Source: Candidatus Poribacteria bacterium
Lineage (GTDB): Bacteria; Poribacteria; WGA-4E; WGA-3G
DNA length: 64,000 bases
Assembly (NCBI GenBank): GCA_965214095.1
Contig: OZ243938.1
Coordinates: forward strand, 2,496,001-2,560,000
Reading direction: 5' to 3'
The number at the start of each line of letters is the position of its first letter. The stretch's first letter is position 1. Under the pieces are notes generated by a model. The model was not told the DNA's origin. It made no database searches and was given only the letters and a program-made list of their open reading frames with translations. Both the position numbers and the translations under genes were made by a program. Below are positions 1 through 20,184 of this stretch, one piece after another.

Positions 1-90
1 TAAATGCAGGGTTAGTTTTAAGTATTTTCCAAAATAGAGATTTACTAAAAGTTAATACCCAAGCCGGTAGGTGCGGTTTCCTAACCGCAC

Positions 91-1578
91 CATAGGCGTC
101 AATTTAAGGATGCACCAAGACCGATAAGTGTCAACTTTTAATCAGAGGAAGTATAAATTATGAAATAAAACTTCTGTAAAAATGAAAACACCTCATATAT
201 AATGTAGATATAGATTTATTATGGTCTACAAAGAGGTGTTTCCTAATGAATACATTATCACAAGTTCCCAAAGAAATGCAACATATTCTTACAACTATAG
301 CCAATGATGCAGCTCTCAATACAGGTTTTGTCAAAAGAAGTTGTAAACTCAACGGTAGTCGTTTTGCTCAAATACTCATTTGGACTTGGTTAGAAAACCC
401 AGATGCCACCTATACACAACTTGCGCAAACCGCTGGTGTGCTGGGGATTTCAATCTCACGACAAGCCATTGAACAACGATTTACATCTGAAGCAGCAGAG
501 ACCCTGAAAGTTATCCTTGATGCTACTGCGTCCAAGGTTATTTCTGCCGACCCGCAAACGCTTCCGCTCCTTGAAAAGTTCACTGGTGTCTATTTACAAG
601 ATAGTTCTTGGATTACACTCCCTGATGTGCTCCACGAAACTTGGGAAGGTGGAAGCAAAAAGAATAAACCGAACACAGCTGCCGTGAAACTCCACCTGCG
701 TTTTGATAGTGCCACAGGCACTTTTGAACACTTTGAACTGACCAATGGTATCACCGCTGATAGTGCTATTGAAAAGCAGATTGACATGCTACCCGCCGGC
801 AGTTTGCGCCTCGCAGACCTCGGCTATTATTCACTTGATACCTTCAAAAGACTTTCCGATGCAAACGTCTTTTGGATATCACGCTACAAAGTCCAGTGTT
901 TTCTCTATGATGAAACAGGTGACCCTTTTTGTTTGCTAAAATGGCTCAAGAAGGGTTCTAATAACTTCAAGGACAAACAAATCTTTATAGGTAAAAACAA
1001 GCGTCTCAAAGCACGATTAGTTGTTCAAAGACTTTCAGAAACAGAAACCCAACAGCGTATTAAGGAGATAAAACATCGTGCAAAGCGGAAGTATACGAAA
1101 CCTTCACCAAAACGACTTCAGCTCGCAAGATGGAATATCTACATTACTAATATAAAAGTAGACCATCTGACTGCTGAACAGATTTGTGCTGTCGCACGCA
1201 TCCGATGGCAGGTTGAGTTGATGTTCAAGTGCTTCAAAAGCATTGGAAAAGTTGATACCTCCCGTAGCGACAAGCCATATAGAATCTTATGTGAGTTATA
1301 TGCAAAACTCATCGTCGCAATTATGCGGCACTGGATCATGTTAAGGGTCGGTTGGCGATGTCTAAAACATAGTCTAACAAAAACAGCAGAACTTATTAGC
1401 ACCTTCGCACGCACACTTGCAATAGGTTTCCGCAAGTCTATAATGTCTTTTCGGCAAACTTTTGATGAAATAAAACACGCTTTCCAAAATGGGTGCTACA
1501 TTGAGAGACGTGCTAATAGAGACACAACATTAGAACACCTTGAAAATGCAGCAAAAAATCACTAAATTGACGCCTATG
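91..1578 (+). mobile_element. IS4-family insertion sequence, 1488 bp, perfect 16-bp TIRs, flanked by a 20-bp direct repeat
   Basis: TIR CATAGGCGTCAATTTA (91-106) / TAAATTGACGCCTATG (1563-1578). GTGCGGTTTCCTAACCGCAC on both sides (71-90, 1579-1598). Encloses a transposase ORF. Confidence 0.95.
246..1565 (+). CDS. IS4-family DDE transposase
   Basis: Motifs YLQDSS, RLADLGYY and RWQVELMFKCFK (YREK-like, with A in place of Y). Stop codon lies in the right TIR. Confidence 0.93.
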   Translation: MNTLSQVPKEMQHILTTIANDAALNTGFVKRSCKLNGSRFAQILIWTWLENPDATYTQLAQTAGVLGISISRQAIEQRFTSEAAETLKVILDATASKVISADPQTLPLLEKFTGVYLQDSSWITLPDVLHETWEGGSKKNKPNTAAVKLHLRFDSATGTFEHFELTNGITADSAIEKQIDMLPAGSLRLADLGYYSLDTFKRLSDANVFWISRYKVQCFLYDETGDPFCLLKWLKKGSNNFKDKQIFIGKNKRLKARLVVQRLSETETQQRIKEIKHRAKRKYTKPSPKRLQLARWNIYITNIKVDHLTAEQICAVARIRWQVELMFKCFKSIGKVDTSRSDKPYRILCELYAKLIVAIMRHWIMLRVGWRCLKHSLTKTAELISTFARTLAIGFRKSIMSFRQTFDEIKHAFQNGCYIERRANRDTTLEHLENAAKNH

Positions 1579-1763
1579 GTGCGGTTTCCTAACCGCACCG
1601 GAACCCACAAGAAAACTGACTATGAAAGGTTTTATCACAAAGTCGCCAGAATATGCGTGTGGTATTTTGCATTGGTTAGGAAACCGCACCTACCAGCTTG
1701 AGGCATTTAGCATTTGTGAAAAAATACAAGAAAAACCGAAAACTAAATAACCCCCTCTGCATA

Positions 1764-2080: not shown

Positions 2081-4534
2081 ATGGAGTATAAAGGGTTAAC
2101 GTTGGATCTATTTCAAGAGGAAGCGATTGAAGCGATAAATCGAGAACAATCAGTATTAGTTACTGCTCCTACGGGTGCTGGTAAAACACTCATCGCAGAA
2201 TACGCAGTTGAGAAATGTCTTGAGACGAACAGACGCGTTATTTATACTGCACCGATTAAAGCACTAAGCAATCAAAAATATAGAGACTTTCAAGCCGAAT
2301 ATGATGATAAAATCGGTATTGTCACTGGGGACGTAGTCTTAAATCCGTTTGCGCAAGTCCTATTGATGACGACCGAGATATTTCGAAATACAATCTTTGA
2401 TGATATAGACAGATTACAAGATGTGTCTTATGTTATCTTTGATGAAATACACTATATCAATGACATTGAACGTGGTACGGTATGGGAAGAGAGCATTATA
2501 TTTGCCCCGCAGCATATCAAGTTTGTTTCCCTGAGTGCGACGATTCCGAATATCGCCTCCTTTGCCGAATGGATGCAAAGTGTCCGGGATATTGACATCA
2601 AAGTCATTGAAGAGTTGGAACGTCCTGTTCCATTAGAACACCACACATATTTCAACGGATTCGGTATAGGAAAAGTAGATCATCTGCGCGATCTACGATT
2701 TGTTTTAAAACGTGAGAAGCGGCAACGTGAGAAAATGAGATGGAGTGATGATAAATCTGCTGAAAAAAATAAAAGTAAAGAGTCAAATACAAAACGGACA
2801 GAAATACCAAAAGAGATAATTAATGTCGATTTAATACCCTATCTCCAGAAAAAGAGACGACTTCCGTGTCTCTATTTTTGTTTTAGTCGAAAGAAGTGTG
2901 AAGCTAACGCCAAAAATTATGCTCTTTACACTAAACGTAATTTGCTTGATGAAGAGAAGCAGAAACAGATTTTGGAGATGTTTGATAAACTTTGCGCACA
3001 ATATGATATTGATGAAGAGAGCGTGATTAACGATTTTCGGAAACTCATCGCCTGTGGAATTGCCTATCATCACGCGGGCATGTTACCAACACTCAAAGAA
3101 GTTGTAGAACGGTTGTTCACTTCAGGATTAATTCAACTTCTGTTCACGACTGAGACGTTTGCTGTAGGGATCAATATGCCTGCATGTACAGTAGTCTTTG
3201 ATAGTCTTGAGAAATTTGATGGAGTTAGTTTCCGTTACCTTCAAGCACGTGAATATCATCAGATGGCAGGTCGGGCAGGTAGACGTGGGATTGATCCTGT
3301 TGGCTATGTGTACGCAACGGTTGATCCGATGTATGCTACCTTATCGGATGTCCAAAAAGCCGTTTCTGATAAGATAGAACCGATCGCAAGTCAATTCAAC
3401 CTTTCATATTCCAGTATCCTCAACCTATACGAGAAATATGGTGATGACATATATGATGTATACACGATGAGTTTGAGCAACTATCAGAATAAAAAACGGA
3501 TCACAGATCTCAATGCACATATTGAACAATTAGAAAAAGAACTTGAATCCTTACCTGTTCCTGTCTGTATCCATGACAACATCAACGGTATGAAACAGAT
3601 TGAGAAATATTATCGCCACAAGCGAAGAAATAATCAGAAACGTGACAACATACATGCAGAGATAACAATGGCAAAATCTCGCTCTTCACGGAATAAATCC
3701 AAAAAAGCACGAAATAAAAAGTTGAAATTAGAATATAATAAGTTGAATAACCTGCAAAAAGAACTGAACACTAATCTCTGCCATGACTGTTACAAGAAGG
3801 AAGAATGCTCTGAAAGGTACCAAGCAATCAGAAAAATGGGAGAGAATATAATTAAAAGAAAAAACCGACAGACAAATGTAGAGGATTATCAACGTAATCA
3901 GATAGCAGCGCGGCTTAGTGTACTTGAAACACTCGGATATATTGAAGAATTGACGCTTCTGCCACGCGGTATTACTGCAACAAATATCTACGGTTATGAA
4001 TTGCAATTGACACAACTCCTCTTTAGCGGATTTTTTGAAAGGTTGAATGAGGATGAAATTAATTGTCTGATCATAGCAATCGTTTCTGAACCACGGAAAG
4101 ATGGTTATTACAAGAAAATAAAAGATAAAAGGATGTTGTCAATAATTGGTGCTGCGATGAACGAAGTTACTGATGTTCAACGTGTAGAAAATCAGCATAA
4201 CGCTTCAGATTTAACACCGCTGTTGGAATTGCATTTATGTTCTGCGATGTGGGCTTGGAGTCGGGGTTGCGAGTTTGATGATTTATATAAATATGCGGAT
4301 CTTGATCCGGGAGATTTTGTGAGATCATTTCGGCTTGTGATTGATCAACTACGTCAAATCCGGCGCGCAACGCCAACACACACGGCTCTTGTTGATAAGT
4401 TAAATCGTTGTATTGGTAAAATAAATCGTGATGTTGTTGATGCTGAACGTCAACTGCGAATTGGACAGGAAGAACCGTCTGAAAATGAAGAGGAAACCAA
4501 ATTAGAACAGAATAAAGGAGAAATTCATGGATAA
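2081..4534 (+). CDS. Ski2/HelY-like SF2 DExH RNA helicase
   Basis: APTGAGKT, PIKALSNQK, DEIH, SAT, HHAGML, QMAGRAGRRG. Coiled-coil/Cys insertion and DSHCT-like C-terminus. Confidence 0.92.
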   Translation: MEYKGLTLDLFQEEAIEAINREQSVLVTAPTGAGKTLIAEYAVEKCLETNRRVIYTAPIKALSNQKYRDFQAEYDDKIGIVTGDVVLNPFAQVLLMTTEIFRNTIFDDIDRLQDVSYVIFDEIHYINDIERGTVWEESIIFAPQHIKFVSLSATIPNIASFAEWMQSVRDIDIKVIEELERPVPLEHHTYFNGFGIGKVDHLRDLRFVLKREKRQREKMRWSDDKSAEKNKSKESNTKRTEIPKEIINVDLIPYLQKKRRLPCLYFCFSRKKCEANAKNYALYTKRNLLDEEKQKQILEMFDKLCAQYDIDEESVINDFRKLIACGIAYHHAGMLPTLKEVVERLFTSGLIQLLFTTETFAVGINMPACTVVFDSLEKFDGVSFRYLQAREYHQMAGRAGRRGIDPVGYVYATVDPMYATLSDVQKAVSDKIEPIASQFNLSYSSILNLYEKYGDDIYDVYTMSLSNYQNKKRITDLNAHIEQLEKELESLPVPVCIHDNINGMKQIEKYYRHKRRNNQKRDNIHAEITMAKSRSSRNKSKKARNKKLKLEYNKLNNLQKELNTNLCHDCYKKEECSERYQAIRKMGENIIKRKNRQTNVEDYQRNQIAARLSVLETLGYIEELTLLPRGITATNIYGYELQLTQLLFSGFFERLNEDEINCLIIAIVSEPRKDGYYKKIKDKRMLSIIGAAMNEVTDVQRVENQHNASDLTPLLELHLCSAMWAWSRGCEFDDLYKYADLDPGDFVRSFRLVIDQLRQIRRATPTHTALVDKLNRCIGKINRDVVDAERQLRIGQEEPSENEEETKLEQNKGEIHG

Positions 4535-17037: not shown

Positions 17038-17266
17038 TATGGTCAAAACCATAATTATTTACACACTACGGTAGGTTCGGTTTCCTAACCGAACCATGGG
17101 CGTCAATTTAGTGTAAATTAGGCGTTTTCCCCAGGACGGTAGGTTCGGTTTCCTAACCGAACCGGATCCTACGCGAGAACCTCTATGAAGGTATTTGGCA
17201 CAAAGACGGTTCGGTTAGGAAACCGCATCTACCGGGAGTGTGCACGGATTTTTACATTTCACTATA
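17038..17266. mobile_element. TA-ended MITE family B with three REPs and a relic IS4 end
   Basis: AAAACCATAATTATTTACA...TTTTTACATTTCACTATA shared with 47472-47608. CATGGGCGTCAATTTAGTG at 17095-17113. Confidence 0.8.
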
Positions 17267-20069: not shown

Positions 20070-20184
20070 ATGAAGATTAATTTATTAAACGGGTAATTCT
20101 CATTTACCCAAACCCGGTAGGTGCGGTTTCCTAACCGCACTGGACTTCTCAAGGAAATTACCTGATTTATTTCTTAATCTTCAT
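20070..20184. mobile_element. MITE with ATGAAGATTAA TIRs, carrying a REP and inserted in another REP
   Basis: ATGAAGATTAA / TTAATCTTCAT. Internal GTAGGTGCGGTTTCCTAACCGCAC at 20117-20140. Flanks are the arms CACAAACT / AGTTTGTG. Confidence 0.72.

Follow-up and report, generated by a model that had tools for sequence, protein, structure and literature searches.

What places an insertion sequence between two complete copies of a 20-nucleotide hairpin, and what fixes the length of the repeated unit? This question is raised by the start of the window, a 64,000-nucleotide stretch of a Candidatus Poribacteria bacterium genome (GenBank assembly GCA_965214095.1, contig OZ243938.1, positions 2,496,001 to 2,560,000 of the forward strand), in which an insertion sequence (IS) of 1488 bp occupies positions 91-1578. 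An initial annotation of this DNA had proposed that the transposase cuts at the base of an extruded hairpin or cruciform, the structure setting the stagger, and that the element thereby multiplies its own target. In this study we report that the 20-bp repeat is a true target-site duplication (TSD), that it belongs to a strong, position-exact preference for one palindromic repeat, and that the same length is duplicated at sites that cannot fold.

The IS is complete, with a single transposase open reading frame (ORF) and perfect 16-bp inverted ends, the left one being CATAGGCGTCAATTTA (91-106) and the right one its exact reverse complement (1563-1578); the stop codon of the transposase gene, TAA, is formed by the first three nucleotides of the right inverted repeat. 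The 20-mer GTGCGGTTTCCTAACCGCAC flanks the element on both sides (71-90 and 1579-1598) and reads as the hairpin GTGCGGTT-TCCT-AACCGCAC, with an 8-bp stem and a TCCT loop. A ninth G-C pair is completed at each junction, the native g at 70 pairing with the first C of the element and the last G of the element with the native c at 1599. The initial annotation had described these perfect ends, complete hairpins and restored ninth pair, and the sequence bears it out. The features of the locus are as follows.

12-1753, no strand: host repeat, here called MITE-B, multicopy, about 250 bp without the IS, with an inverted-hairpin doublet of which the left hairpin holds the IS; its flanks 12-90 and 1579-1753 align to 14 IS-free copies.
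67-70, plus strand: GTAG tag (ggtaG) directly 5' of the hairpin, as in GTAG-type repetitive extragenic palindromes (REPs); seen in the sequence and shared by other listed hairpins.
71-90, plus strand: left copy of the 20-bp TSD, a complete hairpin; from the sequence, copy comparison and unoccupied paralogues.
91-106, plus strand: left terminal inverted repeat, from the sequence.
91-1578, plus strand: complete IS of 1488 bp, one of 13 full-length genomic copies (blastn, 98.3-100% identity).
246-1565, plus strand: transposase gene, 439 aa, IS4-family DDE type by profile, alignment and structure-model matches.
1563-1578, minus strand: right terminal inverted repeat, exact complement of 91-106, from the sequence.
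1579-1598, plus strand: right copy of the 20-bp TSD, a complete hairpin; same evidence as the left copy.
1670-1689, minus strand: degenerate second hairpin of the doublet, inverted (CATTGGTTAGGAAACCGCAC) and followed by ctacc, recognised by comparison with intact doublets.
20121-20140, plus strand: unoccupied single 20-mer in another repeat context, upstream ...acccaaacccggtag; from the sequence and copy comparison.

The genome includes a 5.2-Mb chromosome (C1) of 41% G+C, in an assembly that is 94% complete. An exact 20-bp direct repeat abuts the ends of all 13 full IS copies, and its sequence differs from copy to copy: GTGCGG..CCGCAC in four, GTTCGG..CCGAAC in five, an imperfect stem in one, and unrelated non-palindromic sequences in three (C1 4200153, 4402194 and 4267269). 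Tabulating the flanks of the genomic copies, as the initial annotation had suggested, thus separates ten hairpin sites from three non-palindromic ones. The annotation had opposed its model to ordinary 9-12-bp repeats at non-palindromic sites; such sites do exist, but the repeats found there still measure 20 bp. The copy at C1 4200153 has t and a outside the repeat, which do not match the terminal G and C of the element, so the element ends exactly with CATAGG...CCTATG and the duplication there is exactly 20 bp. Indeed, the flanks of this copy and those of one MITE (for miniature inverted-repeat transposable element; described below) at C1 5144650 permit no length other than the one scored.

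The unoccupied state of the target is given by the IS-free MITE-B paralogues, in 14 of 14 of which the alignments of the two flanks share exactly 20 bp, that is one hairpin. Neither a tandem REP present beforehand nor a hairpin forming part of the element's ends is compatible with this, and an empty allele already carrying two tandem REPs, the other outcome to which the initial annotation had opposed its model, is not what the paralogues show. An orthologous empty site was sought in 20 relatives with the right-flank DNA; the helicase gene beside this flank has 70-86% identity in these relatives, and the upstream intergenic DNA fails to align at any of the five loci that were compared (L097-L100 and L103), the empty-site evidence being that of the 14 paralogues and not of an orthologous empty allele. 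A joint between positions 70 and 1579 in a read contig (runs X7, X8 and X10; 1508 bases skipped, 20 letters shared) was considered as a polymorphic empty allele and rejected, since the contig differs at 6 of 86 bases and is most likely a paralogue. On this side of the IS, the window holds an 817-aa ORF at 2081-4534 with a DEAD/DEAH-helicase-like motif at its start (GAGKT and DEIH, identified by eye); this ORF has 70-86% nucleotide identity in genus relatives, and the intergenic region upstream of it is not conserved.

The 16-nt end of the IS occurs 163 times genome-wide (with at most 2 mismatches), and most of these ends belong to a non-coding MITE of about 171 bp, in which IS-type inverted ends surround a hairpin doublet and hence two copies of the preferred target (for example C1 1338913-1339083, 2057070-2057240 and 3675017-3675187). 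Among the 24 MITE copies with a direct repeat, 19 have 20 bp. Taking IS and MITE together, and keeping only element pairs that passed the direct-repeat score filter, pairs without a repeat being dropped, 37 elements could be scored: the duplication is 20 bp in 32, 19 bp in four and 21 bp in one, and 20 of them lie in the hairpin and 17 elsewhere. Among 41 short inverted-end pairs, 22 have a clear 19-20-bp repeat (10 exact at 20 bp, 10 with 1-3 mismatches and two exact at 19 bp); the other 19 lack a clear repeat, some having later been scored at 19 or 21 bp and some being mis-paired nested ends.

Duplications of 20 bp at non-hairpin sequences are found in three of the 13 IS copies and in at least nine MITE copies. 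In nine non-hairpin 20-bp targets the inner self-complementarity amounts to 1.9 of 7 pairs, against 1.76 +/- 1.14 in random genomic 20-mers, and these sites therefore cannot fold. Moreover, MITE copies inserted in another REP type occupy off-centre windows of 20 or 21 bp (C1 5180447 and C1 2932150). The same duplication at unfoldable sites and these off-centre windows argue that, in the source genome, the duplication length is set by the enzyme and not by hairpin extrusion. Most non-hairpin targets also start with G (15 of 17) and finish with C (14 of 17).

The preference for the hairpin is strong. A search for 20-mers within 3 mismatches of GTTCGGTTTCCTAACCGAAC returned 431 sites genome-wide and none in a reversed-genome control, and the exact hairpin variants, GTT..AAC (264 copies) and GTG..CAC (82 copies), differ by a compensatory pair. 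These hairpins cover about 8.6 kb of 5.2 Mb (about 0.17%), yet hold 10 of the 13 IS copies, all in the same register, which is far above chance and amounts to targeting. When 10 of the 24 MITE copies are added, the hairpin insertions share an identical nucleotide register in 20 of 20 cases, and selection alone cannot account for a preference with such a fixed register. With regard to orientation, the end upstream of the transposase adjoins the GTAG-tagged side, where the loop reads TCCT, in nine of the ten hairpin-inserted IS copies, and in three of four copies of the relative with 90% transposase identity.

The target hairpins look like GTAG-type REPs or REPINs. A ggtag tag precedes the stem in all hairpin copies displayed, and the hairpins mostly form inverted doublets about 65 bp apart (82 such pairs); among 90 doublets, 31 are bounded by IS-type ends on both sides, 27 on one side and 32 on neither. 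The MITE-B family that hosts the IS of the window (about 250 bp; C1 539573, 2765742, 2857544 and 11 more) has ends like TATTTAGTTTT...AAAACTAAATA with the doublet in the centre. The doublet core (..CCAGGCCGGTAG-hairpin-spacer-hairpin-CTACCGGCCTGG..) recurs in three or more distinct larger repeats, as though it could move on its own or had been captured time and again. The single 20-mer at 20121-20140, put forward in the initial annotation as an empty comparator, is present with the upstream context reported; its repeat context is not that of the window's IS. Two other copies of this context are occupied in opposite orientations (C1 1455897 and C1 2742881), and the 14 paralogues serve better for this comparison.

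A REP-associated tyrosine transposase (RAYT) was considered as the mover of the hairpins, and none was found in this 94% complete assembly: PF01797 gave five Y1 matches, none within 1.5 kb of a hairpin, which belong by score to the IS200 type (126 bits) rather than to RAYT, where they reach 28 bits with the cut-off at 80, and NF047646 gave no match above its cut-off. The five IS200-type Y1 genes lie at C1 81623, 2170036, 2385609, 4230081 and 2666075, four of them encoding 141 aa and one a shorter product. The source genome holds two GTAG-tagged REP families, and no RAYT-type gene was found in it.

The longest ORF of the element (246-1565, 439 aa) is the sole long one and contains no frameshift. 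Its product matches two profiles, transpos_IS4_1 of NCBIfam (E 9e-58; 195.9 bits, with the cut-off at 115) and DDE_Tnp_1 of Pfam (PF01609, E 1.9e-22), and reaches only 29 bits with the NCBIfam IS1634 profile, far under the cut-off of 100. The catalytic residues D119, D191 and E324 are invariant in alignments of 11 and of 42 sequences. Judged from these matches, the element is a DDE insertion sequence of the IS4 family, in agreement with the initial annotation. The YREK signature, Y-(2)-R-(3)-E-(6)-K, is incomplete, with R320, E324 and K331 present and Ala317 at the tyrosine position; of 120 relatives, 44 have A at this position, 43 have V, 10 have Y and 12 have some other residue, the motif not being found in the remaining 11. 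An AlphaFold (AF2) model of the transposase has a pLDDT (predicted local distance difference test score) of 77.2, and the five best Foldseek matches in the Protein Data Bank (PDB) are all Tn5 transposase (E 5.6e-10 to 3.4e-8, template-modelling scores of 0.42-0.45, 1muh_A on top); a sequence-only search of the PDB returned nothing at E<=1.

None of the 120 best database matches of the transposase bears a name, and the nearest named match is IS231B (27-28% identity, E 3e-36). Moreover, the first 20 nt of the element (CATAGGCGTCAATTTAAGGA) match exactly the end signature of the IS231 subgroup, CAT-------AA--TAA---, for which a TSD of 10-12 bp is listed (PMC2266710 Table 1). In the IS4 family as a whole, a TSD of 7-13 bp, about one helical turn, and the YREK signature are treated as hallmarks, and the length serves to separate neighbouring families (PMC2266710). 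With 20 bp in 13 of 13 copies against the 7-13 bp listed in Table 1 of that paper, the duplication does exceed the family norm, as had been claimed.

Close relatives of the element are found in Candidatus Poribacteria genomes, and their duplications follow the lineage (percentages are transposase identities to the query). CAXXTN (90%) has 20 bp in five of five IS copies, the non-REP site L003 included, and OY282386 (84%) has 20 bp. CBDCOJ (57%) has 19 bp in three of four, locus L010 being without a repeat; OZ250160 (55%) has 19 bp in five of five, including the non-REP site L016; OZ244616 (55%; hereafter G001) has 17 elements, eight with 19 bp and nine with 20 bp. The 57% and 55% lineages thus stay at 19-20 bp at REP and non-REP sites, L016 and L081 being of the latter kind. 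OZ242381 (49%) has 18 bp in eight of nine, and two JAJ contigs (47-48%) have 17 bp. The lineages at 47-57% usually insert into another GTAG-tagged REP (GTCGGGT...ACCCGAC), which is cut 3-4 bp inside the stem and not at its base. Further away, elements on Chloroflexota plasmids (34-35% identity) duplicate 19 bp (Herpetosiphon) and 20 bp (Ca. Chlorohelix) at non-REP sites. Loss of the YREK tyrosine was examined as the cause of the long stagger and is ruled out, as the elements of CBDCOJ (19 bp), OZ242381 (18 bp) and Chlorohelix (20 bp) retain the tyrosine.

Distant relatives from Prolixibacteraceae and Clostridium (26-30% identity) duplicate 11 bp. Two of these targets, GGGTTAGACCC and GGGTCAGACCC, have the form GGG-N5-CCC and match the 11-bp target motif of IS231A, GGGNNNNNCCC, as given in Table 1 of PMC2577343. 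A maximum-likelihood tree of 17 transposases, unrooted and with rows of our own choosing, contains a split with 100/99 support between 12 rows and five rows. The 12-row side holds the Poribacteria and Chloroflexota elements, with 17-20 bp measured at seven loci (row P0002 represents the 90% lineage, 20 bp), and the five-row side includes IS231B and the 11-bp elements. The figures of 10-12 bp and 11 bp for IS231 are those of the published papers, the flanks of the plasmid IS231B copy being inverted with no clean direct repeat readable.

The direct repeat is unclear or absent at L045 (perhaps 7 bp), L047, L044 and L049, and absent at L010, L013 and L028. At L017 (JAKZUG010000369.1) and L028 (OZ242381.1) the flanking hairpins are inverted, one being the reverse complement of the other, an arrangement that inversion by recombination between oppositely oriented IS copies would produce; we read the loci without a repeat (L010, L013 and L028) and L017 as probable products of recombination between copies. 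The 18-nt end motif, with up to 2 mismatches, occurs at 391 sites of the G001 chromosome (OZ244616.1) and at none in the control. Many of these ends are of the source-genome type (CATAGGCG), though the full-length IS of G001 has CATAGGTG, and MITEs may outlive or cross-use transposase lineages.

These data support, and extend, the idea of an element that regenerates its target and multiplies it. Where a right tip is followed by a left tip within 0-60 nt, which happens five times only, the gap is 19 nt once and 20 nt four times, and in relatives an IS and a MITE share one hairpin at L002, L005, L015 and L021. As the MITE carries two target hairpins and duplicated hairpins are used again, target multiplication is supported more strongly than had been proposed. 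The MITE, having the same inverted ends, is presumably moved by the same enzyme. Several further arrangements of these repeats were observed. The window itself contains a truncated MITE copy at 17095 (17075-17228), which has only a left end, next to a hairpin, and runs into another repeat; this suggests a deletion between hairpins. Three MITE copies (C1 1492263, 4972884 and 3080288) lie at the same 20-bp site (GTGTATAGAAAAATGTGC.C), in a repeat flanked by GCCCCAGCGGGGC palindromes; this second recurrent target is not itself a hairpin. Tandem arrays at C1 2057225-2057414 and 3662239-3662600 show right-end-like 16-mers every 58 bp (four times) and doublets every 120 bp (three times), and the left-end motif CATAAGCGTCAATTTA occurs four times in the same orientation at a spacing of about 3.4 kb (C1 3241967, 3245371, 3248745 and 3252178), which may represent a tandem 3.4-kb duplication carrying a solo end. 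Contig C2 (32,066 bp) has 64% G+C against 41% in the chromosome and may be a binning contaminant or a foreign replicon.

Taken together, we consider it quite likely that the element belongs to the IS4 family as an IS231-related member that is, or was until recently, active, and that its synaptic complex holds two active sites about two helical turns apart on duplex target DNA and reads a short palindromic motif at each cut. The transposase would attack the two target strands about 20 bp apart, two turns instead of one, and repair of the gaps would duplicate 20 bp. The spacing would belong to the enzyme lineage, with 20 bp (rarely 19 or 21) in the source genome and 17-20 bp in its sisters, and would thus reflect the geometry of the synaptic complex on duplex DNA. 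Target choice would depend on half-sites recognised by sequence, in the form of a weak palindromic motif where the two strands are cut, g↓G[T/G][G/T] ... [A/C][A/C]C↓c (arrows mark the cuts), as has been proposed generally for cut-and-paste DDE transposons, and the 11-bp relatives would use the counterpart GGG-N5-CCC. The GTAG-tagged 20-nt palindrome, with its 431 copies, fits this motif exactly, so that most surviving insertions share one register and duplicate the whole hairpin. Each jump of the MITE would then add new targets, two hairpins at a time, and duplicated hairpins are hit again.

Several points weigh against this proposal. IS orientation relative to the hairpin loop is biased 9:1, and a symmetric half-site model predicts no bias. 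Purifying selection against genic insertions could inflate the apparent preference. Many junctions are ambiguous by 1 nt per side, as the element ends with C...G and the targets are flanked by G and C, and the stagger itself is deduced solely from genomic scars. A single rigid B-DNA geometry does not easily accommodate the 17, 18, 19 and 20 bp duplicated in sister lineages, since every base pair turns the second site through about 34 degrees, and target bending or some structural recognition may be involved. Finally, in the 1451-bp IS copies of G001, treated here as one IS, the duplication is 19 bp in 19-nt REP variants (3/3) and 20 bp in 20-nt variants (4/4), the cuts following the ends of the palindrome rather than a fixed distance. 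Thus duplication length tracks hairpin length, the relation that the initial annotation had proposed to test, across the REP variants of G001, with an exception in its sister genome (L023, 19 bp in a 20-nt variant); the same IS of G001 also gives 19 bp at a non-REP site, and in the source genome the length stays fixed at unfoldable sites. This co-variation is the one result that favours a duplication following the palindrome, although a half-site reader with 1 bp of play explains it equally well. A more elaborate reading starts from it: the Poribacteria/Chloroflexota clade related to IS231 would have re-spaced its attack to about two turns, with cuts in REPs anchored on the palindrome arms and not on distance, the enzyme treating the palindrome as a structural unit (a cruciform or sharply deformed duplex) and forming, with the target-carrying MITE, a self-amplifying system. 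We regard this as unlikely; if true, it would describe a transposon that manufactures and spreads its own landing pads.

The structure-guided model of the initial annotation, in which the transposase recognises an extruded hairpin or cruciform, cuts at fixed places of the stem and makes a duplication that follows hairpin length, has several observations in its favour. Ten of 13 IS and 10 of 24 MITE copies occupy a single symmetric register in a perfect stem of 8-9 bp closed by a loop of 4 nt, the two main variants preserve pairing through their compensatory change, the 19/20 co-variation of G001 is joined by a 3-nt-loop hairpin (L086) that gives 19 bp, and the 17-20-bp duplications of sister lineages always start and end inside REP stems. 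We nevertheless find this model quite improbable, for the 20-bp duplication is equal at unfoldable sites, the Chloroflexota relatives act at non-REP sites, windows are off-centre in the other REP type, the cuts of relatives lie 3-4 bp inside stems of 7-11 bp and not at the junction, and imperfect stems are used (L004, L006 and C1 3684192). Furthermore, extrusion is poor for G+C-rich stems of 8-9 bp with 4-nt loops. The alternative account of the co-variation, in which half-sites are read with 1 bp of play, has a parallel in the 10-12 bp of IS231 (PMC2266710). Survivorship offers another explanation, according to which insertion is nearly random with a 20-bp stagger and only insertions in neutral repeats persist. 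All the data are indeed fixed genomic copies, specificity is not absolute (17 of 37 sites are non-hairpin) and the hairpins sit in repeats that are likely neutral; but selection cannot place 20 of 20 hairpin insertions at one nucleotide register, the hairpins are a small share of the non-coding DNA, and non-hairpin targets keep their terminal G and C, which makes this account very improbable. That no duplication took place at all, the hairpin being part of the element ends or the IS having landed between tandem REPs, is scarcely credible: in a formal sense the inverted repeat continues to 36 bp if 4 mismatches are allowed, the 20-mer being palindromic except for its loop, and element-free tandem hairpins do exist (C1 2301980 and C1 2712983), but the flanking 20-mers vary between copies while matching within each, three unrelated sequences included, the unoccupied paralogues carry a single hairpin, and the loop is direct, not inverted, on the two sides.

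A coherent clade with duplications of 17-21 bp shows that, inside one and the same fold, evolution can shift the distance between the two strand-transfer sites by almost a full turn, and close relatives giving 11, 17, 18, 19 and 20 bp make the Tn5-like geometry of target capture directly testable. For annotation, pipelines that seek 8-13-bp repeats will mis-call the ends of such elements, and the hairpins would in that case be assigned to the IS or be taken for separate REPs. Moreover, an IS, a MITE that carries targets and the re-use of these targets together offer small palindromic repeats a concrete way of multiplying that needs no RAYT, the MITE being an example of an element that spreads the preferred landing site of its (presumed) transposase.

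In full-text searches of the literature we found no DDE insertion sequence with a fixed duplication of 17-22 bp, although ISfinder entries for Herpetosiphon or Chlorohelix elements, or the additional files of PMC2266710, may contain such lengths; the matches for long duplications were instead attachment-site (att) repeats of genomic islands, long and short interspersed nuclear elements (LINE/SINE) and casposons. The long duplication thus appears to be unreported, and REP targeting by IS4 members is already known from ISRm22. Among DDE elements related to IS4, IS1634 and IS1549 make repeats of 8-514 bp that vary from copy to copy (PMC2266710). These elements share with ours a duplication much longer than one helical turn, whereas here the length is fixed within 1 bp per lineage.

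Other insertion sequences that target REPs include IS1397 and IS621. According to PMC1525189, the IS4-family element ISRm22 has nine of nine copies in REPs at the palindrome axis, with 6-bp repeats, and ISRm22, ISPsy8, ISPa11, ISPpu9/10 and ISRm19 resemble our element in having all or nearly all copies at one exact REP position, at or around the axis of symmetry. Such elements split the REP and duplicate 0-6 bp, whereas the element studied here duplicates the entire hairpin core, leaves two intact copies and also uses non-REP sites. The hairpins themselves resemble GTAG REPs (defined in PMC3733652) and REPINs (PMC3733652 and PMC3337134), being a high-copy 20-nt palindrome with GTAG on one side and lying mostly in inverted pairs about 65 bp apart, in the manner of REP doublets; they differ in that no RAYT was found in this genome and in that a third of the doublets are bounded by the inverted repeats of the present DDE element. 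Restoration of the target palindrome by the element has a parallel in the P element, whose terminal inverted-repeat nucleotides restore a palindromic target motif at both junctions (PMC2577343), as the terminal C and G do here for the ninth pair. The P element is eukaryotic and duplicates 8 bp. In their way of working, Cas1-family integrases (casposases and CRISPR adaptation) are also alike, as they attack in a staggered manner, on its two sides, a defined, often palindromic unit of about 14-36 bp that is duplicated whole. A 22-bp TSD is reported for a casposon. The fold of Cas1 is unrelated to the RNase H-like DDE fold, and this likeness is an analogy only.

IS231 (IS231A and IS231B, Bacillus cereus group) remains the nearest known system. 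It has, as the present element, a single-ORF DDE transposase, 5'-CAT ends that fit the signature, a palindromic target with staggered cuts that starts with G and ends with C, a slight play in length, and non-autonomous derivatives with the same ends. The differences are nonetheless substantial: the duplication is 10-12 bp in IS231 and 17-21 bp in the group of the present element, the 27-28% identity to IS231B is below the closeness within the subgroup, where many pairs exceed 50%, and IS231B lies on the other side of the 100/99 split. Furthermore, the transposase is shorter than that of IS231 (439 against about 480 aa) and is without a stretch of about 17 aa, the clade is hosted by Poribacteria and Chloroflexota, and the YREK tyrosine is replaced in many of its members. 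We thus read this clade as a lineage related to IS231 whose stagger would have grown from about one to about two helical turns, with a preference for palindromic G...C targets.

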